The notes under the pieces are model-generated. The model was not told the origin of the DNA and ran no database searches. It saw only the letters and a list, made by a program, of their open reading frames with translations. Positions 40,993-62,564 of a stretch of DNA of 64,000 nt are shown here, piece by piece. Numbering within the stretch: position 1 is the first letter of the stretch; every line of letters starts with the position of its first letter. The position numbers were made by a program, and so were the translations under genes. The DNA is from Alphaproteobacteria bacterium. Its GTDB lineage: Bacteria; Pseudomonadota; Alphaproteobacteria; Rs-D84. The stretch covers positions 129,783 to 193,782 of the forward strand of contig WRCA01000001.1 in assembly GCA_009784275.1 (NCBI GenBank), in the 5' to 3' direction.

Positions 40993-41277
40993 ATGGCAAC
41001 TGTTTCAAGAATAGATTTTTCAAAAAGATTAAGCGCGACAACCGGATTAAGCATGGCAGAAGCCGGCAAGCTGGTAGATCTTGTGTTTTCAGAAATCGCG
41101 GAATCATTAATTCGCGGGGAAGAAGTGAAAATCGCAAATCTGGGGACTTTCAAAATCTTGGAAAAAAACGCACGCATGGGACGCAATCCAAAGACCGGCG
41201 AGACCGCAGTAATTTCTGCCCGTCGTGTTGCATCATTTAAACCCAGCGCAGAATTAAGAAAAAAAATGGCTAATTAA
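40993..41277 (+). CDS. ihfA: integration host factor alpha subunit
   Basis: MATVSRIDFSKRL...GLS..EA..LVD.VF.EI...GE.V...GTF....ARMGRNPKTGE. Follows fabH as in alphaproteobacteria. Confidence 0.75.
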   Translation: MATVSRIDFSKRLSATTGLSMAEAGKLVDLVFSEIAESLIRGEEVKIANLGTFKILEKNARMGRNPKTGETAVISARRVASFKPSAELRKKMAN

Positions 41278-41302
41278 AATCCCGCTTTCGCGGGATTTTT
41301 TA
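41277..41302. terminator. bidirectional terminator AAAATCCCGCTTTCGCGGGATTTTTT
   Basis: Between convergent ihfA and pepO. Confidence 0.65.
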
Positions 41303-43282
41303 CCACACTTTCACCCTCTCTTCCGGAGAAATATAAAGTTTGTCCGTTGGCACTACATCAAATGCTTCATACCATTTATCAATATGCGGCAAAATTCCAT
41401 TAACACGCCACTCGGATAAAGAATGCGGATCGACTTTGGTAAGACGCACAACTTCTTCTGGACGTATGTTCTGATTTTCGCATGCCGCATAACCCAGGAA
41501 AAATATTTGTTCTGGCGTGAATTCGGATTTCGCCGCACCGCTACCCGCCAGTTTCCATGCATCAAATGAAATCATGATTCCACCATAGTCTGCCAAATTC
41601 TCACCCAATGTAAATTTTCCGTTCGCATACAATCCTGGCGCGACTTCAATTTTATTGAAAAAGTCTTCCATGACTTTCGCACGCGTTTCGAACGCTTTGG
41701 CATCCGATGGTTTCCACCAGTCTTTCAGATTACCATCCTTGTCAAACTTTCTTCCTTGGTCATCAAAGCCATGTGTCATTTCGTGTCCGATGACGCTGCC
41801 GATCGCGCCATAGTTTATGGCATCCGGAGCATTGAAATCAAAAAACGGGGGCTGCAAAATCCCTGCAGGAAAACAAATCTCGTTCGTTGGCGGATTATAA
41901 TAAGCATTAACTGTTTGCGGATACATATGCCAATGATCTCTATCAACAGGACCATCAGCTTTTTCTATCCAGAACGCATCTTCAAAAGCTGCTGCCGCTC
42001 GCAAATTCTCATACAGCGAAACCTTTTCGGAAATTTCCAGCTTTGAATAATCACGCCATTTATCCGGATAGCCGATTTTCACGCGGAAAGTTCCCAATTT
42101 TTCCAATGCCTGCTTCTTTGTTTCTGGCGACATCCATTCAAGGTTTTCAATTCTTATGGCATATGCACGACGCAGATTTTCAACCAGGTTCAGCATTTTT
42201 TCTTTTGCCGCGGGCGGGAAATATTTTTCTACATAAACCTGTCCCACGGCCTCGCCCATCACACCCTCTGCCAATGACACCGCGTCTTTCCAGCGTGGGC
42301 GCCGTTCGGTTTTTCCCGATAATGTTTTGCTGTAGAATTCGAACTGCAGTTCGTACTGCGCATCGCCCAACACGGCCATCGCGCTATTTGCAACCCGCCA
42401 TTTCATATAAGCGCGCAGATTTTCCAATGGCTCTTTTTTGATGATCTCAAGCGCAGCTGCAATCGCTTCGGGTTGTGCGACATTGATGTTTTTCGGGTTC
42501 GCCATACGCAATTCGAAATAATTTTTCCAATTAAGGCCCGCGTATTTTTTAACAAGCTCCGCACGAGTCATTTTGTGATAATTCGCATGTGGATCACGCA
42601 ACTTTTCTTTTTTATAATGCGCCTTGGCAAGTTTTTCTTCGATCTGATAAACAGCCTTTGGGTCGCCTGGGATTGAAAACATTACGAAAACATCGCCCAT
42701 ATACTTCTTATACTTTTCGCGAATTTCTTGTGACCGCTCATCAGTATCAAAATAATATTCGCGTTCCGGCAGGCCGATTCCGCCTTGGCCCATGGAATAA
42801 ATATAATGATCGCTGTCCATTATGTCTTCTTCGACGCCATTGCTCCAAAAAGCGCCGCCAAAACGATGAAAGTCCGCCAGCACACCCCAGAACTCTTCCG
42901 CATTTTTAATCATATCTATCAGTTCGAATTCTTTTGATACAGGCGCGACCCCGTCCTTGTTCAAACGATTTGCATCCATGGCTTGTTTATAAATCGTTGC
43001 GATTTTTTTATTGCTGGTATCGCGGACAATTTTATGAAGCTTTTCTGAATTTTCCTGACGTAGCTTGTCAAAAACGCCATAACGAGCATACTCGCCAGTC
43101 AGCGGATTCTTGCGGCGCCATCCCGCGCCCGCATAGCTGTAAAAATCGTCGCCCGGACGAATAGTCAAATCCATATTTGTAATATCAATCATGCTTCTGG
43201 GTTCCTTTCTTATATAATAAATTGTCACGGCTGTAATCACTACCGCGAGTATTCCAATGATGTTGAGTAGTTTGCTCTTCAT
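41300..43282 (-). CDS. pepO: M13 family zinc metallopeptidase (PepO / endothelin-converting-enzyme-like), membrane anchored
   Basis: N-terminal TM IIGILAVVITAVTIYYI. HEMTHGFD zinc motif and ENLADYGG downstream motif. Confidence 0.8.
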   Translation of the reverse strand: MKSKLLNIIGILAVVITAVTIYYIRKEPRSMIDITNMDLTIRPGDDFYSYAGAGWRRKNPLTGEYARYGVFDKLRQENSEKLHKIVRDTSNKKIATIYKQAMDANRLNKDGVAPVSKEFELIDMIKNAEEFWGVLADFHRFGGAFWSNGVEEDIMDSDHYIYSMGQGGIGLPEREYYFDTDERSQEIREKYKKYMGDVFVMFSIPGDPKAVYQIEEKLAKAHYKKEKLRDPHANYHKMTRAELVKKYAGLNWKNYFELRMANPKNINVAQPEAIAAALEIIKKEPLENLRAYMKWRVANSAMAVLGDAQYELQFEFYSKTLSGKTERRPRWKDAVSLAEGVMGEAVGQVYVEKYFPPAAKEKMLNLVENLRRAYAIRIENLEWMSPETKKQALEKLGTFRVKIGYPDKWRDYSKLEISEKVSLYENLRAAAAFEDAFWIEKADGPVDRDHWHMYPQTVNAYYNPPTNEICFPAGILQPPFFDFNAPDAINYGAIGSVIGHEMTHGFDDQGRKFDKDGNLKDWWKPSDAKAFETRAKVMEDFFNKIEVAPGLYANGKFTLGENLADYGGIMISFDAWKLAGSGAAKSEFTPEQIFFLGYAACENQNIRPEEVVRLTKVDPHSLSEWRVNGILPHIDKWYEAFDVVPTDKLYISPEERVKVW

Positions 43283-54710: not shown

Positions 54711-54757
54711 AGTTTACCTTGATTTCATATACCGCCAATGTATAATTGCTTTCGCGT

Positions 54758-54834
54758 CGGGGTGTAGCTCAGCCTGGTAGAGTACTTGCATGGGGTGCAA
54801 GGGGTCGCAAGTTCGATTCTTGTCACCCCGACCA
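54758..54834 (+). tRNA. tRNA-Pro (anticodon GGG)
   Basis: CGGGGTGTAGCTCAGCCTGGTAGAGTACTTGCATGGGGTGCAAG...GTTCGATTCTTGTCACCCCGACCA. Confidence 0.85.
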
Positions 54835-54984
54835 AATGTTTCCAAATAAAAAGCATACTTTTACAAAAAACTTGTTTTTTCAATTTTCATAAGCTATAGT
54901 TTTCTTTGAATCCACAGGGATGTGGTTTCGGGACGTAGAAAATCCCATAGAAACGCGGCGCGGTTGCGTCGTAATCCGCAAAAG

Positions 54985-55133
54985 GCTTGCGGCGCGATTG
55001 CGCCTCTGTTTTTACCCGGCTTTATAGTCGGGAAGTCGCAGCTATACAACAGGCTATGCCAAAAACTGCGAGGTCATTCGTTTCTATGATTTTTCTAACT
55101 TCCCGACCGCCATTCCTTGGCGGTTTCTTTTCG
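54985..55133 (+). promoter_or_regulatory. structured leader of the flotillin gene with two terminator-like hairpins (GGCGCGATTGCGCC+TCTGTTTTT at 54991-55013; CCGCCATTCCTTGGCGG+TTTCTTTT at 55107-55133) and a 10 bp inverted repeat GTCGGGAAGT/ACTTCCCGAC (55028-55037 / 55098-55107)
   Basis: Read directly. 340 nt with no ORF between tRNA-Pro and the flotillin ATG. Confidence 0.4.
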
Positions 55134-55171
55134 TCCAACCGGAGAGAGAAGAAAAAAAAAGGAAAAGAAAA

Positions 55172-56752
55172 ATGAACTTCGCAGAATTGAATTATGTTTT
55201 GATCTCCTCCGTTGGTGTGGGATCCATCGCCGCTTTATGGATCGGCAGAAAGATACTCTCTTGGCGTACAATCGTGGAACCGGAAACTGTGCACGTTGTG
55301 ATGACCGCAAACAAAGCGACATCCTATGGTAAAGATACCGGAAACGGAAACGTTTACTATGAATGGCCGAAATGGATTCCAGGTCTTGGTGTTCGTAAAA
55401 AATCACTTTCTGTTGCTAACTTTACTATCCCAATTGATGGTTATGACGCTTATGACAAAGACCGTGTTCCATTCCTTGTTGATATCCGCACCTTCTTCCG
55501 TATTGAAAATACAAATCGCGCAGCGGAAAGAATCACAACAGAAAATGAAATGAAAGATCAAATTAAGGAAATTGTCAGGGGTGCTGTCCGTAACCTGCTT
55601 GCCAAGGCAAAGATCGCCGAAATTATGGAAGAACGTTCTAAATACGGTGAAGACTTCACAAATTCTATCAAAGAACAATTAGAAGAATGGGGTGTCGTTC
55701 CTGTTAAAAATATCGAGCTCATGGACATTCGCGACGTTCAACAAAAAACAGACCCAAAGACAGGGATAGCTGAAGTTGGACCGATTGGAAGAATTATGGC
55801 AATGAAGCAGGCGGAAATCGAAAAAGAATCCAGAATGAAAGTTGCCGTATCTAATCAGGAAGCACGAGAAAAGGAAATTGAAGCAGAACGACAAGTTGCC
55901 ATTAAAGAAGCTGAAAAAGAAGAGCATGTTGGCAAAAGAAATGCTGAAAAAGATCAGACTGTCGGTATCGCGGAAGAAAAATCCAAGCAAAAAGTCGCGG
56001 AAGAAGCCAAAGTGACCATGGAAAAGAACTTGGCTGTTGAGCAAGTCAACCAGGTTACGAATGCCGAAATCACCCAGAAAAAAGCTGTTATTGACGCCGA
56101 AACCACAAAGAAGACCACGATCATCCAAGCCGAACAGGACAAAGAAAAACGGATTATCGACACTGGTGCGGAAAAAGAACAGATCAAAATCCAGACTGAT
56201 GCGGAAAAGTATAACATCGAAACGATTGCGGATGCGAATCTTGATGCTGCAAAGAAGGGTGCTGACGCGGTTATCGCTGCGAAAACAGCCGAAGCAAAGG
56301 GTGTCAGGGAAGTCGGAACTGCTGCTGCGGATGCCGAAAAGCAGATGCAGTTGGCGCGTGTGACCGCGGAAACGACCCTTGCGGAAAAGATTGGAAAAAT
56401 CCCGGAATATCAGGATTACTTGGTTAAAATCGAAACGGTCAAGCAGAACGCGAATGTTGAAATCAAACGTGCCGAATTTGGCGCAACCGTTGGAATAGAG
56501 CAAGCGAAAGCGCTCGAAAAAGCCAATGTAAGCGTTGTTGCAAATACCGGCGGCAGCGTTCAGTCAGGCTTGAAATCAGTCGGTGATTTATTCACACCTG
56601 AATTTGCGACCAAGCTGGGGGCTGCGGATACTGCGCTTAAGAATGCAACCGGCGGTACCGGTTTGATCGATACTGTCAAAGAAGCGCTTGATAAGTTCGC
56701 TTTGGCAAAGGGCAACCTTCCAAATAACGCACGGCCACAAGCCACAAAATAA
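55172..56752 (+). CDS. flotillin-like SPFH/Band-7 protein (FloT/YqiK family)
   Basis: N-terminal TM, SPFH domain, long Glu/Ala/Lys-rich coiled-coil (EA repeats), C-terminal flotillin tail. Confidence 0.8.
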   Translation: MNFAELNYVLISSVGVGSIAALWIGRKILSWRTIVEPETVHVVMTANKATSYGKDTGNGNVYYEWPKWIPGLGVRKKSLSVANFTIPIDGYDAYDKDRVPFLVDIRTFFRIENTNRAAERITTENEMKDQIKEIVRGAVRNLLAKAKIAEIMEERSKYGEDFTNSIKEQLEEWGVVPVKNIELMDIRDVQQKTDPKTGIAEVGPIGRIMAMKQAEIEKESRMKVAVSNQEAREKEIEAERQVAIKEAEKEEHVGKRNAEKDQTVGIAEEKSKQKVAEEAKVTMEKNLAVEQVNQVTNAEITQKKAVIDAETTKKTTIIQAEQDKEKRIIDTGAEKEQIKIQTDAEKYNIETIADANLDAAKKGADAVIAAKTAEAKGVREVGTAAADAEKQMQLARVTAETTLAEKIGKIPEYQDYLVKIETVKQNANVEIKRAEFGATVGIEQAKALEKANVSVVANTGGSVQSGLKSVGDLFTPEFATKLGAADTALKNATGGTGLIDTVKEALDKFALAKGNLPNNARPQATK

Positions 56753-56840
56753 GAAAGCAAAAATGTCAAAAACAATCCAGAAAGGTTATTAAACCTTTGG
56801 ATTGTTTTGACATACCCATCAGCAATAAAGAGGTATCCAC

Positions 56841-57881
56841 ATGAATAATTCAGGATATGATGCACTTCGTAAAAAATATGGTATTGGAAACTCATCGACA
56901 GATACTAAACCGGCACAAAAGCAAACTGTTGAAAAGCAGACTGTCGTTGCGCCTGAACCTGGCGCAAAACCAGTTACACCACCAGTTATGCCGCGTCCTG
57001 TCGAAGTCCAAAAACCCATTATTCCGACATACGAGAAACCAAAACCGCAAGCTCCGGTTCCTGTAAAACCACAATTGCCCAGCCAATTAAAATTATTCAA
57101 GAAATTAAAAGAAGATGCAGAAATAGATGATGAATGTGAATTTCTGGAAAAATTATTGGAAAAAGTGGAGCTGTTGAATGAATCCGACGCTAAAACAATG
57201 ATGCGCGATTCTTTTAACGATAACGATGAAGGCGAATTCTCATTCGATTACAACGGTTATAATTTCAATATCAAGTACAGTTCAGAAGATGATTTATATA
57301 CCATTACATTGTCGAATGATGACCTGTCGGAAGAAGTCGAACAAGAATTCAAATATGATCCGAAGTCTGAAACGCCGGCGCTTCTTAAAGTTTTGGAACA
57401 AAGATATATTGAATCATTAAATGATGGGGCAAAGAAAGATTTCGAAATTATGCAGAATGTTGAGAAAAACCTTGGAACTAAAATAAAGCATTATTATTCG
57501 GAATCTATCAACTATGGCGAGAATGGCGGCGAGTATTATCTGAAAACCGAGTCAAAACAAAATAAATACATATGCGTCAAAGATACTCAAGATGAAAATG
57601 AAGATATCGCTGATTTCAATAGCATGGATGTGTCCTTCACTAATATTGACCCGGCCATAGATGGCTTTGATATAAGCGACTGCGCACATCACACGATTGA
57701 AATTAATAATTATGAAGTGCCTTATTGGCGCATTGCAAAAAAAATTATTGATTATATCGGCAACGAATATGACAAAGATAGCAATGCCGCTGCAACATCG
57801 CATAATCAGTTGCTGGAAACTCGGAATAAACCCGCCGATGTTCGCCAAAAAATCGTTTTAGATGGAATTAGGCAAATGTAA
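56841..57881 (+). CDS. hypothetical Pro-rich N-terminus / acidic C-terminal domain protein downstream of flotillin
   Basis: 346 aa ORF, GAGGTATCC ribosome binding site-like context. Not an NfeD. Confidence 0.4.
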   Translation: MNNSGYDALRKKYGIGNSSTDTKPAQKQTVEKQTVVAPEPGAKPVTPPVMPRPVEVQKPIIPTYEKPKPQAPVPVKPQLPSQLKLFKKLKEDAEIDDECEFLEKLLEKVELLNESDAKTMMRDSFNDNDEGEFSFDYNGYNFNIKYSSEDDLYTITLSNDDLSEEVEQEFKYDPKSETPALLKVLEQRYIESLNDGAKKDFEIMQNVEKNLGTKIKHYYSESINYGENGGEYYLKTESKQNKYICVKDTQDENEDIADFNSMDVSFTNIDPAIDGFDISDCAHHTIEINNYEVPYWRIAKKIIDYIGNEYDKDSNAAATSHNQLLETRNKPADVRQKIVLDGIRQM

Positions 57882-57887
57882 ATATGA

Positions 57888-57917
57888 TAAAATCCCGCTT
57901 TTGCGGGATTTTTTTAT
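57888..57917. terminator. bidirectional terminator AAAATCCCGCTTTTGCGGGATTTTTTT
   Basis: Between convergent genes. Confidence 0.65.
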
Positions 57918-57922
57918 AACAT

Positions 57923-58723
57923 TTAAAACCTTGCCCCTATATTAATTCCAAGTTCTCTGGTTATATTTGCGGGTTCCATCATCTCAATTTCTATTTGTTT
58001 TCCATTCGATAAAGTTACTTTCTCTACAGATCTTTCCGAATTACCAAATTGTTGATATTTAAAATAAGGTTCTAACCAAAAATAACCATATTCGTAAGAT
58101 ACAGAAAATTCGAACAGAGATCCTTCTTTTTGTTTATATACAACATCTACATCTTTTTTTGACACAGTTCTTGAATATACTACTGTTCCTGACTTAACCG
58201 CGGGAGTGATTATATGTCCCCCTATTTTCCATATATATTTGGTTCCAAAAGTCCAAAAAATCGAATTACGAATACGGCGATGTCCATAATCTGTATTTTT
58301 ATCATTCGAATCATCAAATCCTTTATAATTAGAGCCCGTAAAAAGCACCCAATAATCATCGCCTAACTCATAAAAATTAAAGGCTACGCCAACCTGGGCA
58401 TCTGCGCCAAGATTAACTTGCGATCCATTGAATTCATACGGACTTTTAGCGCTGGTTAGCATATTTACTAGGGAACCGTTATACGAATACTCTTTATGGG
58501 AATAATCTGCCGTAGCATTAAGATAAAGATTGGCTTCATTGCCATTTCCATAGTGTTGAAATCTTACAATAGCCCCCAGAAGGTACCCTGCTTGCTGCAT
58601 ATAACCGGATTCTTTATAAAGGTGATGTCCGACCGTACCGCCAAGATAAAAATTAGTATCTGCATTTGCCTCAAATGGAAGCAACACAGCGGGTATTAAA
58701 AATACAAAGTTAGATTTTTTCAT
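57923..58723 (-). CDS. outer membrane beta-barrel protein (OmpA-like/OmpW-like barrel, about 260 aa)
   Basis: Signal peptide MKKSNFVFLIPAVLLPFEANA. Alternating Tyr/Gly-rich strands. C-terminal ...GINIGARF. Confidence 0.5.
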   Translation of the reverse strand: MKKSNFVFLIPAVLLPFEANADTNFYLGGTVGHHLYKESGYMQQAGYLLGAIVRFQHYGNGNEANLYLNATADYSHKEYSYNGSLVNMLTSAKSPYEFNGSQVNLGADAQVGVAFNFYELGDDYWVLFTGSNYKGFDDSNDKNTDYGHRRIRNSIFWTFGTKYIWKIGGHIITPAVKSGTVVYSRTVSKKDVDVVYKQKEGSLFEFSVSYEYGYFWLEPYFKYQQFGNSERSVEKVTLSNGKQIEIEMMEPANITRELGINIGARF

Positions 58724-58833
58724 TTTTTCCACATTATGCGAAAATAGGGAAATTCTGCCCATAGGTATGAAATCGCTTTTCAGTCAGGTCACAAAAACTT
58801 GTAAAAGCTTAAAATTAATAGTACAATCTTTCT

Positions 58834-59352
58834 ATGTCAGTTATCGATGATATAATTCAATTCAATACCAAATTTGTGGAAAGTAAGGAATACATTCCGC
58901 ATTTATCTGAAAAGATCCCAAAGAAAAAACTAGCTATCCTTTCTTGCATGGATACCAGATTAACACAACTGCTGCCTGCTGCGCTGAATATAAAAAACGG
59001 CGAGGCAAAGATTATAAAAAATGCCGGCGCGATTATATCCCATCCATATGGCAGTGTCATGCGTAGCTTGCTGGTTGCTGTTTATAATTTGGGCGTGCGC
59101 GACATAATGGTAATCGGGCATACAGACTGCGGCATGGAAAAGTTAAATCTGCCAGAGCTTATTAATAAGATGGAACAAAGAGGCATATCCCCAAACATCG
59201 AAAACTATGAATGGCTGCGCGGATTCGATAACACTAATGAATCCATTATGGCCGGTGTGAACATCATAAAGAATCATCCCCTGATGCCAAAGGACATAAC
59301 AGTTCGCGGATTTTTAATGGATATAAATACTGGTAAAATCAACGAGATTTAA
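58834..59352 (+). CDS. beta-class carbonic anhydrase
   Basis: CMDTRL (CxDxR) and GHTDCG (HxxC) zinc-ligand motifs. Confidence 0.7.
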   Translation: MSVIDDIIQFNTKFVESKEYIPHLSEKIPKKKLAILSCMDTRLTQLLPAALNIKNGEAKIIKNAGAIISHPYGSVMRSLLVAVYNLGVRDIMVIGHTDCGMEKLNLPELINKMEQRGISPNIENYEWLRGFDNTNESIMAGVNIIKNHPLMPKDITVRGFLMDINTGKINEI

Positions 59353-59912: not shown

Positions 59913-62564
59913 ATGAAATGGGTATATACCTTTGGAAACGGTGCGGCAGAAGGTACCGCAAAGGATAAAAACTTACTGGGTGGCAAGGGCGCAAATTTGG
60001 CAGAGATGAACTTGATTGGTCTACCGGTGCCTGCGGGTTTTACTGTTACCACGGATGCTTGTGTTCACTATTATTCAAATAATAAATCTTATCCGGCCGG
60101 ATTAATTGACCAGGTAAAAGCCGGGGTTGCATATGTAGAATCCATTATGGGACATAAATTCGGCGATATGGAAAATCCATTATTGTTCTCTGTTCGTTCC
60201 GGCGCGCGCGTTTCTATGCCAGGCATGATGAACACCGTTTTAAATTTGGGCCTTAATGACGAAACTGTAAAAGCCCTCGCGAAATTCACCAACAACGAAC
60301 GCATGGCATATGATTCTTATCGCCGATTTCTGATGATGTTCAGCGATGTTGTTCTGGGTGCGGATATGGATTTATTTGAACACACTCTGGAACGCATGAA
60401 GGAAGACAAAGGCTATAAGTTCGATACAGAACTAACCGTTGCCGACCTGCAAGAACTGATCGTGAAGTTCAAAGAAATTGGCGTGAAGATTGGAAAGATT
60501 GTTCCACAGGATCCTTGGGTGCAATTAGAGGCTGGTATCGGCGCAGTATTTGATTCTTGGATGTCAAAGAAGGCCATCATTTATCGCAAGCTGAACAATA
60601 TTCCAGGTGACTGGGGCACTGCGGTTAATGTCCAGGCGATGGTGTTTGGAAACTCTGGTGATAATTCTGCGACTGGCGTATGTTTCAGCCGTGACCCTTC
60701 CACCGGAGAAAACAAATTCTATGGCGAATATCTTATTAACGCCCAGGGCGAAGACGTCGTTGCCGGAATTCGCACTCCGCAGCCAATGGCAAAGGATGAT
60801 TCTGGACGTATGTCGCTGGAAGAAGCGATGCCCGTGGTTTATGCCGAACTGGTTGCTGCGCGCGACAAATTGGAAAAGCACTATAAAGACATGCAAGATA
60901 TGGAATTTACCATAGAGCATGGAAAGCTGTGGATGCTGCAGACCCGTAATGGAAAACGCACCGCAACCGCAGCTGTTCGCATCGCGGTAGAAATGGTTGA
61001 AGAAAATCTGCTTAACAAAGAAGAAGCGATTTTGCGTGTTGGTGCAGACCAATTAAATCACTTGCTGCATCCGATGCTTGATCCAAAAGCGACCAAGAAA
61101 GTTATCGCGACCGGCTTGCCTGCAAGTCCAGGCGCAGCCGTTGGACGTGCGGTATTCAATGCCGACGACGCAGTTGAATGGGCGTCGCGCGGCGAAAAGG
61201 TTATGTTGATTCGCATAGAGACTTCACCAGAAGATATCGCAGGAATGGACGCCGCCCAGGGAATCATAACTGCGCGTGGTGGGATGACATCACACGCAGC
61301 AGTGGTGGCGCGCGGAATGGGAACACCTTGCGTTTCAGGTTCCGCCGACATAAAAATCGATTATGTTTCAAAAACGATGAAGACTACATCCGGCGCAGTG
61401 ATTAATGAAGGCGACTGGATTTCCATTGATGGCGGCAAAGGCGAAATCATTGAAGGTCAGGTTCCGACCGTATCTGTGGAATTAACCGGAAACTTTGGCA
61501 AGCTGATGGAATGGGTTGACAGTATCAAGACTTTGGAGATTCGCGCGAATGCCGAAACTCCGCGAGATGCAAAACAAGCACGTGAATTCGGATGTGAAGG
61601 AATTGGCCTGGCACGTACAGAGCATATGTTCTTTGACCCGGCACGCATCATGGACATGCGCGAAATGATTTTGGCCGATACTGTTGAAGGTCGCCGCAGC
61701 GCGCTTAACAAACTGTTGCCTTATCAACGCGCGGACTTTGTAGAGCTATTTAAAATTATGGATGGATTGCCAATTACTGTTCGTTTGATTGACCCGCCGC
61801 TGCATGAATTCTTGCCGCATACCACCGAAGACATCAAAGCGTTGGCGATTCATGCCGGGAAGACGGTTGAGTTCGTGAACGAGCGCGCGTCAGCACTGCA
61901 CGAACAAAACCCGATGTTGGGTCACCGCGGCTGCCGCTTGTGCATCACTTATCCGGAAATTGCAGAGATGCAGACCCGCGCAATTTTGGAAGCCGCATTG
62001 GAATGCAAAAAAGCCGGAATCAAAGTTTTGCCTGAAATTGAAATTCCCCTTATCGGTTCCAGAAAAGAACAAGACATTGTCAAAGCCGTAATCGATGCGA
62101 CCGCGAAACAAATTTTTGCTGAAAAAGGCGCAACTGTTGACTACAAGGTTGGTTCAATGATAGAGCTGCCGCGTGCGGCATTGCTGGCTGATGAAATTGC
62201 AGAAAGCGCAGAATTCTTTGGCTTTGGCACAAATGACCTGACGCAAACTACTTTGGGCATGTCGCGCGATGATACTGGAAAAATCTTGGATGAATATCGC
62301 GCGCGTGGTGTTTATGTTGCCGACCCGTTCGCCAGCATCGATGTACCAGGCGTTGGCGCAATGGTCGATATGGCTGTGCAAAAAGCCCGCAAGACCAAGG
62401 GACATGACATACACCTGGGCGTTTGTGGCGAACATGGCGGAGACCCGGAATCTATCCAATTCTTTCATAAGGTCGGAATGGATTTCGTATCCTGCAGCCC
62501 GTTCCGCGTGCCAATCGCACGCCTCGCCGCCGCCCAGGCTGCGGTTAAAAACCCACGCAAGTAA
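59913..62564 (+). CDS. ppdK: pyruvate, phosphate dikinase
   Basis: Phosphohistidine region GGMTSHAAVVARGMG. PEP-utilising C-terminal domain. 883 aa. Confidence 0.9.
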   Translation: MKWVYTFGNGAAEGTAKDKNLLGGKGANLAEMNLIGLPVPAGFTVTTDACVHYYSNNKSYPAGLIDQVKAGVAYVESIMGHKFGDMENPLLFSVRSGARVSMPGMMNTVLNLGLNDETVKALAKFTNNERMAYDSYRRFLMMFSDVVLGADMDLFEHTLERMKEDKGYKFDTELTVADLQELIVKFKEIGVKIGKIVPQDPWVQLEAGIGAVFDSWMSKKAIIYRKLNNIPGDWGTAVNVQAMVFGNSGDNSATGVCFSRDPSTGENKFYGEYLINAQGEDVVAGIRTPQPMAKDDSGRMSLEEAMPVVYAELVAARDKLEKHYKDMQDMEFTIEHGKLWMLQTRNGKRTATAAVRIAVEMVEENLLNKEEAILRVGADQLNHLLHPMLDPKATKKVIATGLPASPGAAVGRAVFNADDAVEWASRGEKVMLIRIETSPEDIAGMDAAQGIITARGGMTSHAAVVARGMGTPCVSGSADIKIDYVSKTMKTTSGAVINEGDWISIDGGKGEIIEGQVPTVSVELTGNFGKLMEWVDSIKTLEIRANAETPRDAKQAREFGCEGIGLARTEHMFFDPARIMDMREMILADTVEGRRSALNKLLPYQRADFVELFKIMDGLPITVRLIDPPLHEFLPHTTEDIKALAIHAGKTVEFVNERASALHEQNPMLGHRGCRLCITYPEIAEMQTRAILEAALECKKAGIKVLPEIEIPLIGSRKEQDIVKAVIDATAKQIFAEKGATVDYKVGSMIELPRAALLADEIAESAEFFGFGTNDLTQTTLGMSRDDTGKILDEYRARGVYVADPFASIDVPGVGAMVDMAVQKARKTKGHDIHLGVCGEHGGDPESIQFFHKVGMDFVSCSPFRVPIARLAAAQAAVKNPRK

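Follow-up and report, generated by a model that had tools for sequence, protein, structure and literature searches.

Results

A structured spacer between tRNA-Pro and a flotillin-like gene

In the 64-kb window analysed here (the whole 64,000-nt stretch of the alphaproteobacterial contig WRCA01000001.1, within which all positions are numbered), a spacer of ∼340 nt lies between a tRNA-Pro (GGG) gene and the start codon of a gene for an SPFH/Band-7 protein, and this spacer contains an RNA related to sRNA-Xcc1 together with upstream boxes complementary to it. The neighbours (rpsA, an adk-like gene, tRNA-Pro, the SPFH gene, carbonic anhydrase and PPDK) make up a chromosomal housekeeping setting. 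The SPFH protein has an NCBIfam FloT-like match below the cut-off, and its homologues carry the name flotillin, which we use here. An original prediction, made from the sequence, had described the spacer as free of open reading frames (ORFs), and indeed it is overlapped only by mechanically called ORFs of 31–62 aa, none of which has a plausible ribosome binding site. The prediction had also listed two terminator-like hairpins and a 10-bp inverted repeat, and all three could be confirmed where they had been placed (±1 nt). The first hairpin, GGCGCGATTGCGCC at 54991–55004 followed by TCTGTTTTT up to 55013, is only the tip of an 18+2 bp hairpin (terminator T1, Table 1). The repeat consists of GTCGGGAAGT and ACTTCCCGAC, which are complementary at 10/10 positions and begin at 55027 (55028 had been given), and the second hairpin, CCGCC...GGCGG at 55107–55123, is followed by TTTCTTTT up to 55131 (earlier end 55133).

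The folding check that had been proposed gave −122.7 kcal/mol for the 346-nt spacer compared to −83.6 ± 5.6 kcal/mol for dinucleotide shuffles (z = −7.0, 0/100 shuffles), and the segment 55020–55135 was also more stable than its shuffles (z = −3.8). The key feature of the spacer, which is absent from the original prediction, is a 28-nt long-range complementarity (inverted repeat I1) between 54928–54955 and 55079–55106.

An RNA related to sRNA-Xcc1

The proposed Rfam scan returned a single non-tRNA match in the spacer, to sRNA-Xcc1 (RF02221). The match is full length (model positions 1–87), lies at 55027–55115 and scores 42.9 bits, with E values of 6.9e-6 in a local search (1.4 kb) and 3.2e-4 across the whole window. 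Because this score is under the 53-bit gathering threshold, we filed 55027–55107 as a divergent relative or subfamily of sRNA-Xcc1, and not as a curated-threshold member; three pattern-derived loci that carry the full module (L075, L084 and L107, see below) likewise fall below the gathering score. The minimum free energy (MFE) structure of 55020–55135 is exactly the sRNA-Xcc1 fold, a three-helix topology that was found in 77/83 family sequences under minimal constraints. The conserved sequences of the family are also in place: GUCGGG (55027–32), AUACAA (55044–49), CCCGAC (55102–07) and an NNCC tail (55108–11). In addition, the window and phage members have the strings GCAGCTATACAACA, AAAACTGC, TTTCTAAC+C/TTCCCGAC and the tail CGCC in common. 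The usual setting of the family (phage, integron cassette or plasmid, with an antirepressor or toxin gene downstream) was not found, as the window gave no phage or defence matches. At E ≤ 10, Rfam showed no C4 (RF01695) and no isrK (RF01394) match in the window.

sRNA-Xcc1 was first found in an integron cassette of Xanthomonas campestris. It was originally described as a discrete 88-nt RNA (PMC2996969), and a 2025 preprint places Xcc1 upstream of symE in integron cassettes (bioRxiv 10.1101/2025.06.18.660453). We did not find a c4-like link stated for sRNA-Xcc1 in the searchable literature; the preprint mentions only the symE position.

The RNA is complementary to boxes upstream of it

The 3′ half of the RNA and its own upstream region form a predicted duplex of −28.5 kcal/mol, compared to −13.3 ± 2.5 kcal/mol for shuffled sequences (0/300 as strong), and this pairing is stronger than with any of 64 foreign phage upstream regions. 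The spacer thus contains the upstream boxes of a c4-type antisense module. The recognition elements b′ and a′ are the loop of hairpin B and the 3′ junction of the RNA, and together with the 3′ arm of the closing stem P1 they are complementary to b1, a1 and the box flank (Table 1). The closed form with the long-range helix is predicted at −102.3 kcal/mol and the modular form at −89.1 kcal/mol (−54.4 plus −34.7), so that the closed form would be ∼13 kcal/mol more stable.

We aligned five leaders from promoter to start codon (the window and the metagenomic loci L293, L298, L290 and L283, see below) and compared the two sides of the long-range helix. Its 24 pairs were 94.1% paired and 9/24 had changed on both sides; none of 500 shuffles was as good, and slid controls reached at most 60%. 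The b1/b′ variants were CATAGAAACG/CGTTTCTATG, CATAACATAA/TTATGTTATG, CATAAAGGTA/TACCTTTATG and CATAATCGA/TCGATTATG, and the a1/a′ variants were TAGAAAAT/ATTTTTCTA and TAAGACAT/ATTGTCTTA, with a one-base bulge that is the same in both. This pattern indicates that the long-range helix is under selection. Both the RNA fold and the long-range helix covary among relatives.

The remaining parts resemble an IsrK-type leader by sequence anatomy alone, with a promoter at 54872–54900, the boxes, and T1 ending at 55013. The module promoter is below the cut-off of a consensus promoter scanner. The four closest relatives have the −35/17–18 nt/−10 arrangement in an equivalent position (TTGAAA/TATGTT, TTGCAA/TAATAT, TTGTTT/TATACT and TTTACA/TATAGT), and equivalent 5′ hairpins with different stems follow it (GCCAA/TTGGT in L290, CGCCAA/TTGGCG in L283); the position of both elements is conserved among relatives. 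Transcription would start at ∼54908, and T1, which has almost the same sequence in L293, L298 and the window, would terminate a ∼106-nt short leader RNA. The distance from the T1 U-run to P1 is only 13 nt, which leaves no room for a promoter there. The hairpin of T2 shares its basal GAC (three base pairs) with P1. Flotillin starts 64 nt past P1, and neither reading of the sequence nor the promoter scan revealed a promoter-like site in the 40 nt that separate T2 from the ATG. The tRNA-Pro gene has its own promoter-like site (TTGATT-16-TATAAT, 54719–54746).

Two side observations concern P1. A competition between P1 and T2 for the shared GAC was considered as a switch and is not relied on, because the overlap is only 3 nt and is occupied in both proposed conformations. 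The acceptor stem of tRNA-Pro (GTCGGGGTG/CACCCCGAC; 54756–54832) resembles P1 (GTCGGGAAGT/ACTTCCCGAC), and the subfamily model scores the tRNA at 14 bits. This likeness may fit a tRNA-like stem recognised by RNase P, or it may be a coincidence.

Table 1. Features of the spacer and the two flanking genes (window positions)
Feature	Position	Strand	Basis
tRNA-Pro (GGG), upstream neighbour, outside the module	54758..54834	+	ARAGORN; Rfam tRNA 58.8 bits
Module promoter (putative): −35 TTGTTT (54872–54877), 17-nt spacer, −10 TATAGT (54895–54900)	54872..54900	+	read from sequence
5′ hairpin of leader RNA (CCACA GGGA TGTGG)	54912..54925	+	MFE folds
Boxes complementary to the downstream RNA	54928..54955	+	inverted repeat I1, 28 nt
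Box flank UCGGGA	54928–33	+	part of I1
Box a1 UAGAAAAU, in loop of small hairpin GGGA/UCCC	54936–43	+	part of I1
Box b1 CAUAGAAACG	54946–55	+	part of I1
Terminator T1: long hairpin 54957–54974 / 54987–55004, U-run TCTGTTTTT 55005–55013	54957..55013	+	terminator scan, folds
sRNA-Xcc1-like RNA, 81 nt, three helices	55027..55107	+	Rfam RF02221 match; subfamily model R1
Closing stem P1	55027–36 / 55098–107	+	sRNA-Xcc1-like RNA
Hairpin A: outer stem 55037–41 / 55066–70, AUACAA 55044–49, inner stem 55052–54 / 55058–60		+	sRNA-Xcc1-like RNA
Hairpin B: stem 55072–77 / 55086–91, loop 55078–85		+	sRNA-Xcc1-like RNA
Recognition elements b′ 55079–88, a′ 55089–98		+	sRNA-Xcc1-like RNA
Terminator T2: GACCGCCA / UGGCGGUU hairpin, U-run UUUCUUUU	55105..55131	+	terminator scan
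Flotillin 5′UTR: ribosome binding site AGGA 55160–63, start codon 55172	55142..55174	+	UTR common to L002, L004, L005
SPFH/Band-7 flotillin-like gene, 526 aa, downstream of the module	55172..56752	+	Pfam Band_7 1.5e-13

On the downstream side of the RNA, the hairpin after the closing stem contains no a2 box. In the window and in L290, L283 and L293, the best duplex of b′a′ with downstream sequence spans the start codon; as the sequences are of low complexity, pairing at the start codon is suggestive only. The window has an 8-bp match of AGAAAAAU (55166–73) with AUUUUUCU (55089–96; repeat I13), which is also of low complexity and not significant. The flotillin 5′ untranslated region (5′UTR) shows a weak complementarity of 55162–70 with the T2 U-run (55124–32), and the inverted repeats I3, I12 and I13 cover this region. 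No convincing trans target of b′ was found within the window; the one exact copy (60209–60218) falls within the PPDK gene, on its non-coding strand.

Phage members of the family pair on both sides

Bona fide sRNA-Xcc1 members (65–86 bits) in the phages Aaphi23, P13374 and Stx2 F039 lie ∼40 nt upstream of same-strand genes of antirepressor type. A degenerate pattern scan of viral contigs yielded at least 120 loci with 79 distinct RNAs (L037–L156; others are L014–L016), and 9/12 tested pattern-derived loci passed the Rfam threshold. Among 88 ORFs downstream of phage members, many of which belong to antirepressor families, we found Bro-N (19), AntA (9), P22_AR (8), KilA-N (6), Rha (4) and ORF6N/C (3 and 4) domains and no SPFH domain (0/88), and ∼35/88 were proteins of ∼80 aa in the position that icd holds in P1. 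The RNA lies 30–69 nt upstream of the Bro-N, AntA, P22_AR, KilA-N, Rha or ORF6N genes.

In these phages the loop of hairpin B covaries with 5–8 nt that abut the Shine-Dalgarno sequence (UCUGUAUC/GGAUACAGGA, UCUACGUU/AACGUAGGA, UCUUAUUU/AAAUAAGGAGG), and the 3′ junction does so with the loop of the hairpin next to the closing stem on its 3′ side. Both recognition elements are also complementary to boxes 50–110 nt upstream, and in 62/76 loci a run of at least five T, as of an intrinsic terminator, separates the boxes from the RNA. When the 3′ half of each RNA was paired with its own upstream 150 nt, the energy was −24.2 kcal/mol compared to −17.2 kcal/mol for cross-paired partners (P = 1e-19, 64 specificities); for the downstream region of the same 64 specificities the values were −18.6 and −14.8 kcal/mol (P = 9e-11). 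This pairing pattern is the a1-b1 / c4 / a2-b2 logic of the P1 immI region. The whole phage sRNA-Xcc1 family behaves as a c4-like immunity module, with a2 in the hairpin loop, b2 at the Shine-Dalgarno sequence and antirepressor genes next to it. The hairpin after the closing stem has no T-run comparable to that of the window in the 76 phage loci (phage maximum 6, typically 3–4 T; window 7 of 8 T). In phage P13374, Rfam isrK and C4 matches are adjacent, isrK first.

By eye, box b1 of phage loci (e.g. L038, L048, L049) is usually followed by GCGG-NNN-CCGC-loop-GCGG-T7, ∼50–110 nt upstream of the RNA. By analogy with P4 CI, this element could be an antiterminator/terminator alternative that binding of the RNA at b1 tips towards termination.

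A chromosomal subfamily with terminators and same-strand genes downstream

A first metagenome pattern, with the apical stem of the window, found nothing, not even the window's own contig, which is therefore absent from the metagenome collection. A second pattern, in which the closing stem of the window was kept and the loops were left free, returned 24 loci, many from termite gut and some from human gut. The resulting subfamily is small, with 17 distinct RNAs plus the window (18 sequences). As phage members aligned plainly with MAFFT were too misaligned for RNAalifold, constrained folds and the closer subfamily alignment were used. The subfamily fold was 94.9% paired with double changes at 10 pairs (slid controls at most 52%), and the model R1 built from it scores the window, one of its 18 training sequences, at 78.5 bits. 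A hairpin that shares the GAC, with a T-rich run, directly follows the closing stem in 17/18 members. Moreover, the upstream boxes match their own RNA better than those of other members (native −15.3, cross-paired −9.1, P = 6e-10). Rfam covers the subfamily poorly: L287 scored 46 bits and the other eight scanned loci were below the E 0.01 cut.

The members have chromosomal neighbours (pyrG, comEC and pyk; ligA; lpxI with a lytic transglycosylase; plsX with rpoC; a GDP-mannose dehydratase), and the contig that carries L290 is from gut Alphaproteobacteria (Ca. Enterousia-like names). An ORF was called downstream in 14/17 distinct loci, always on the same strand, and it starts 23–58 nt past the closing stem in 12/14 (107 nt in L285 and 145 nt in L298). 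The attenuator-like architecture of the original prediction agrees with this recurrent position of the module directly upstream of a same-strand gene. The genes, most of them envelope-related, encode PAP2 phosphatases (L280, L296), GT2 glycosyltransferases (L288, L297), a GT92/GT2 protein, a WbsX glycosyltransferase, RgpF (two loci), a TupA-like ATP-grasp protein, a weak PagL-like match and two small secreted proteins. In 4/7 long contigs the module is in a divergent intergenic region, and in L293 the distance from the T2 U-run to the ATG is only ∼15 nt. This short gap and the divergent positions mean that the module promoter must drive the downstream gene. The window has all the properties of the subfamily, namely the Xcc1-like fold, the GAC-sharing terminator, upstream boxes that covary with the RNA and, a short way downstream, a gene on the same strand.

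The more distant chromosomal members (type 2; e.g. L279, L282, L286, L287, L292) mostly lack T1 and have GTCCCGAC 3–6 nt before the RNA. As this is the complement of the 5′ arm of the closing stem, a second alternative pairing is built into the type-2 members.

Flotillin relatives and genomic context

The comparison with flotillin leaders of relatives gave no subfamily-model match at any flotillin relative. The closest relatives (75%, 67% and 61% identical) have in common with the window no more than the final ∼40 nt ahead of the ATG, which speaks against a conserved flotillin leader, and a genome-contig scan with flotillin found no relative closer than 67% and no RNA match in any of 20 loci. 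The leader of the 75% relative (L004, positions 1–270) contains a GC-rich terminator (54–92) and a 15-bp A/U stem (118–131 / 195–208) that encloses ∼62 nt and is followed by a T-run; it has no Xcc1 match, and homology to the module of the window could not be established.

In an independent assembly of the same organism from ENA (L277), the leader is 100% identical (compared to 54828–55171) beyond a break at the tRNA-Pro: the 78-kb contig ends inside the 3′ end of this gene, which may be due to variation between strains or to a repeated sequence at the tRNA. The window showed no signature of an island or of integration (no tRNA 3′-end repeat, direct repeats, integrase, phage, integron or defence genes), and blastn of 54900–55140 against phage and plasmid collections gave no match. 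Viral scans with parts of the window returned chance matches or nothing: the P1 arms only (GTCGGGAAGT...ACTTCCCGAC) matched coding DNA by chance and no RNA family, the boxes TAGAAAA...CATAGAAACG gave 120 A-rich chance matches, none beside an Xcc1-like RNA, and Xcc1 with loop B of the window gave nothing.

Downstream of flotillin, a stretch of lower GC content (56750–59000; 0.32–0.40) contains two ORFs, 56841–57881 (+, 346 aa) and 57923–58762 (−, 279 aa), neither of which has a Pfam, PHROG, NCBIfam or PADLOC match; the former also adjoins flotillin in L004. A weak RsmY-like Rfam match at 41276–41383 (−) scored 25.5 bits (gathering 57, E 0.037) and is probably due to chance.

Discussion

A two-RNA leader that could gate flotillin

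We propose that the spacer is a self-contained two-RNA leader of the phage c4/sRNA-Xcc1 type, similar to c4 and IsrK, that gates read-through into flotillin, and we put the probability of this reading at roughly two in three. Transcription from the module promoter would first produce ∼106 nt that carry a1 and b1 in single-stranded form and stop at T1. Polymerases that pass T1 would make the 81-nt Xcc1-like RNA and then at once meet T2. The boxes could pair with this RNA either within one read-through transcript, giving the closed form, or in trans, when the short leader RNA meets the Xcc1-like RNA. By analogy with P1 c4 (a1 b1 – c4 – a2 b2), P4 (seqA – CI – seqC) and Gifsy-1 IsrK/STnc1160, pairing would set the number of transcripts that pass T1 and T2, or that are translatable, and would in this way gate flotillin from the module promoter. 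For every step of this logic, IsrK/STnc1160 and P4 CI offer a precedent in the literature (PMC4825925). We infer that flotillin is the regulated output and that one of the two conformations would be 'on'. Expression of flotillin here probably requires a promoter located 265 nt upstream and the passage of polymerase through two terminators.

This organisation is close to one half of the original interpretation. The idea that a small RNA stops at 55013 and that a second regulated leader comes after it fits the comparative data, in which a promoter-proximal RNA with a1 and b1 stops at T1 and a second structured RNA, complementary to the first, follows T1 and stops at T2. The attenuator-like architecture also stands; a riboswitch and a leader conserved with flotillin find no support.

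Several observations weigh against the two-RNA leader. The RF02221 score stays below the curated gathering score. The patterns that collected the relatives fixed P1 and AUACAA, so that these positions are not independent evidence, and the window is itself part of model R1. At the ribosome binding site of flotillin we found no significant a2/b2 target: the best pairing (−14.5 kcal/mol) was equalled by 28% of shuffles, and 47% of foreign phage RNAs bind this purine-rich region equally well. Downstream complementarity was not significant in the subfamily either (P = 0.26). The 67% and 61% flotillin relatives have no Xcc1-like RNA and instead carry a TTGACA/−10 promoter directly before the same purine-rich 5′UTR, and the 75% relative has a different structured leader (z = −5.1). 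In addition, the subfamily model finds only one copy of the module in the window, and T2 looks like a competent terminator, so that the RNA could be a stand-alone sRNA.

Alternative explanations

The last point leads to an unlikely alternative, in which the spacer encodes a stand-alone pair of trans-acting sRNAs (sponge and antisense) that lies between tRNA-Pro and flotillin by chance, with flotillin regulated independently. Both RNAs end at good intrinsic terminators, no significant match to the translation start of flotillin was seen, orthologues of flotillin in other genomes are preceded by a promoter of their own and lack the RNA, and the founding member was described as a discrete RNA (PMC2996969). 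Against such an arrangement, the 40 nt from T2 to the ATG contain no promoter-like site. In some relatives this gap is only ∼15–27 nt, often in divergent intergenic regions, so that the genes need the module promoter, and at every locus with an ORF called the ORF is close and on the same strand. The missing a2/b2 boxes could also mean that the module is a phage or integron-cassette remnant, an immunity region that integrated beside tRNA-Pro, lost its target gene (an antirepressor or toxin) and is now inert. Phages and integron cassettes are the typical carriers of the family (bioRxiv 10.1101/2025.06.18.660453), tRNA genes are common integration sites, and the contig of the independent assembly stops within tRNA-Pro, in its 3′ end. 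A relic is nevertheless very improbable: the window shows no integrase, phage or integron genes and no tRNA 3′-end repeat, the helices, both terminators and the 28-nt complementarity are all intact, and 17 chromosomal relatives keep the architecture with compensatory changes, which argues for selection and not decay.

A metabolite- or tRNA-sensing riboswitch, which the original prediction had considered, or a peptide-dependent attenuator controlling flotillin could account for the length and strong structure of the leader and for its two terminator hairpins. We regard this as the least probable explanation. Rfam contains no riboswitch, T-box or leader family that matches the spacer at E ≤ 10, and the sRNA-Xcc1-type RNA accounts for the structure; there is no credible leader peptide, and the leader is not conserved with flotillin. 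Furthermore, the boxes are variable and covary with each other, which indicates RNA–RNA recognition and not a conserved ligand pocket.

Implications for the sRNA-Xcc1 family

The RNA of the window is related to an already known family. New are a chromosomal, terminator-bearing subfamily that the Rfam threshold misses, its position before envelope genes including flotillin, and the c4-like box pairing in the family. In many genomes sRNA-Xcc1 is annotated as a 'virulence-linked trans-acting sRNA' with no mechanism, and the covariation ties it to antisense control of the c4/IsrK type. A broader idea, which we offer tentatively and consider on balance doubtful, is that the c4/Xcc1 module of phages was domesticated in gut Alphaproteobacteria (lineages of the termite and human gut such as Ca. 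Enterousia) as a programmable leader of envelope genes, with a private a/b 'address' at each locus. Its examples would be lipid-A and undecaprenyl phosphatases, glycosyltransferases, rhamnan synthesis genes and flotillin. If this were true, two RNAs of one promoter would set, locus by locus, the passage of two terminators, which could give bistable or heterogeneous expression of surface genes. The position of the subfamily before chromosomal envelope genes in uncultured gut Alphaproteobacteria would make it a phage immunity device taken over for host gene control. The subfamily also offers a compact and naturally re-addressable RNA part made of two boxes and two terminators.

Comparison with known systems

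The RNA of the window shares with sRNA-Xcc1 the 9–10 bp closing stem (GUCGGG.../...CCCGAC), hairpin A with the AUACAA internal loop and a small apical stem, hairpin B, the U-rich 3′ junction and the NNCC tail. The flanking plan is also the same, with complementary boxes and a terminator upstream and a tail that forms a hairpin. The window differs in that the apical stem is GGC/GCC instead of CCC/GGG, the hairpin after the closing stem has turned into a real terminator, no a2/b2 box is present at the downstream ribosome binding site, and the context is chromosomal and housekeeping, with flotillin downstream and not an antirepressor or symE.

Work on c4 by Citron & Schuster (1990) and Hartmann (1995) reportedly described its processing by RNase P. 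As in P1/P7 c4 (RF01695; a1-b1-c4-a2-b2-icd-ant), the closing stem of the window RNA encloses two hairpins, the recognition elements are complementary to upstream boxes on the same transcript, and the RNA occupies the leader of the next gene; the ...CC tail and the tRNA-like closing stem suggest that RNase P may process the RNA here as well. In contrast to c4, the window has no RF01695 match and no detected downstream target boxes, its closing stem is much shorter, and one recognition element is a junction instead of a loop. The role of c4, icd and ant in P1 has been described (PMC8198154). In P4, the processed CI RNA is complementary to the upstream seqA in the same leader, and their pairing controls premature termination (summarised in PMC4825925). 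The window shares with P4 seqA-CI-seqC a structured RNA that is complementary to sequence upstream of itself in one leader, whereas a seqC-like downstream copy was not detected.

The third system is IsrK/STnc1160 (orf45) of Salmonella Gifsy-1. There, a short RNA ends at an intrinsic terminator, and the read-through RNA pairs over ∼30 nt with a downstream segment and adopts an inactive form; IsrK can act in trans on this long RNA, and a processed c4-like RNA lies downstream, an arrangement that was worked out by experiment (PMC4825925). The window differs from it in having no Rfam isrK match and no small coupling ORF, a host flotillin gene downstream instead of an antirepressor, and the extra terminator T2 between the RNA and the gene. 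A promoter-proximal short RNA with a terminator, a pairing of ∼30 nt and a c4-like RNA downstream are present in both. Judged by this anatomy, the leader in the window is not a member of the IsrK family but would work like IsrK.

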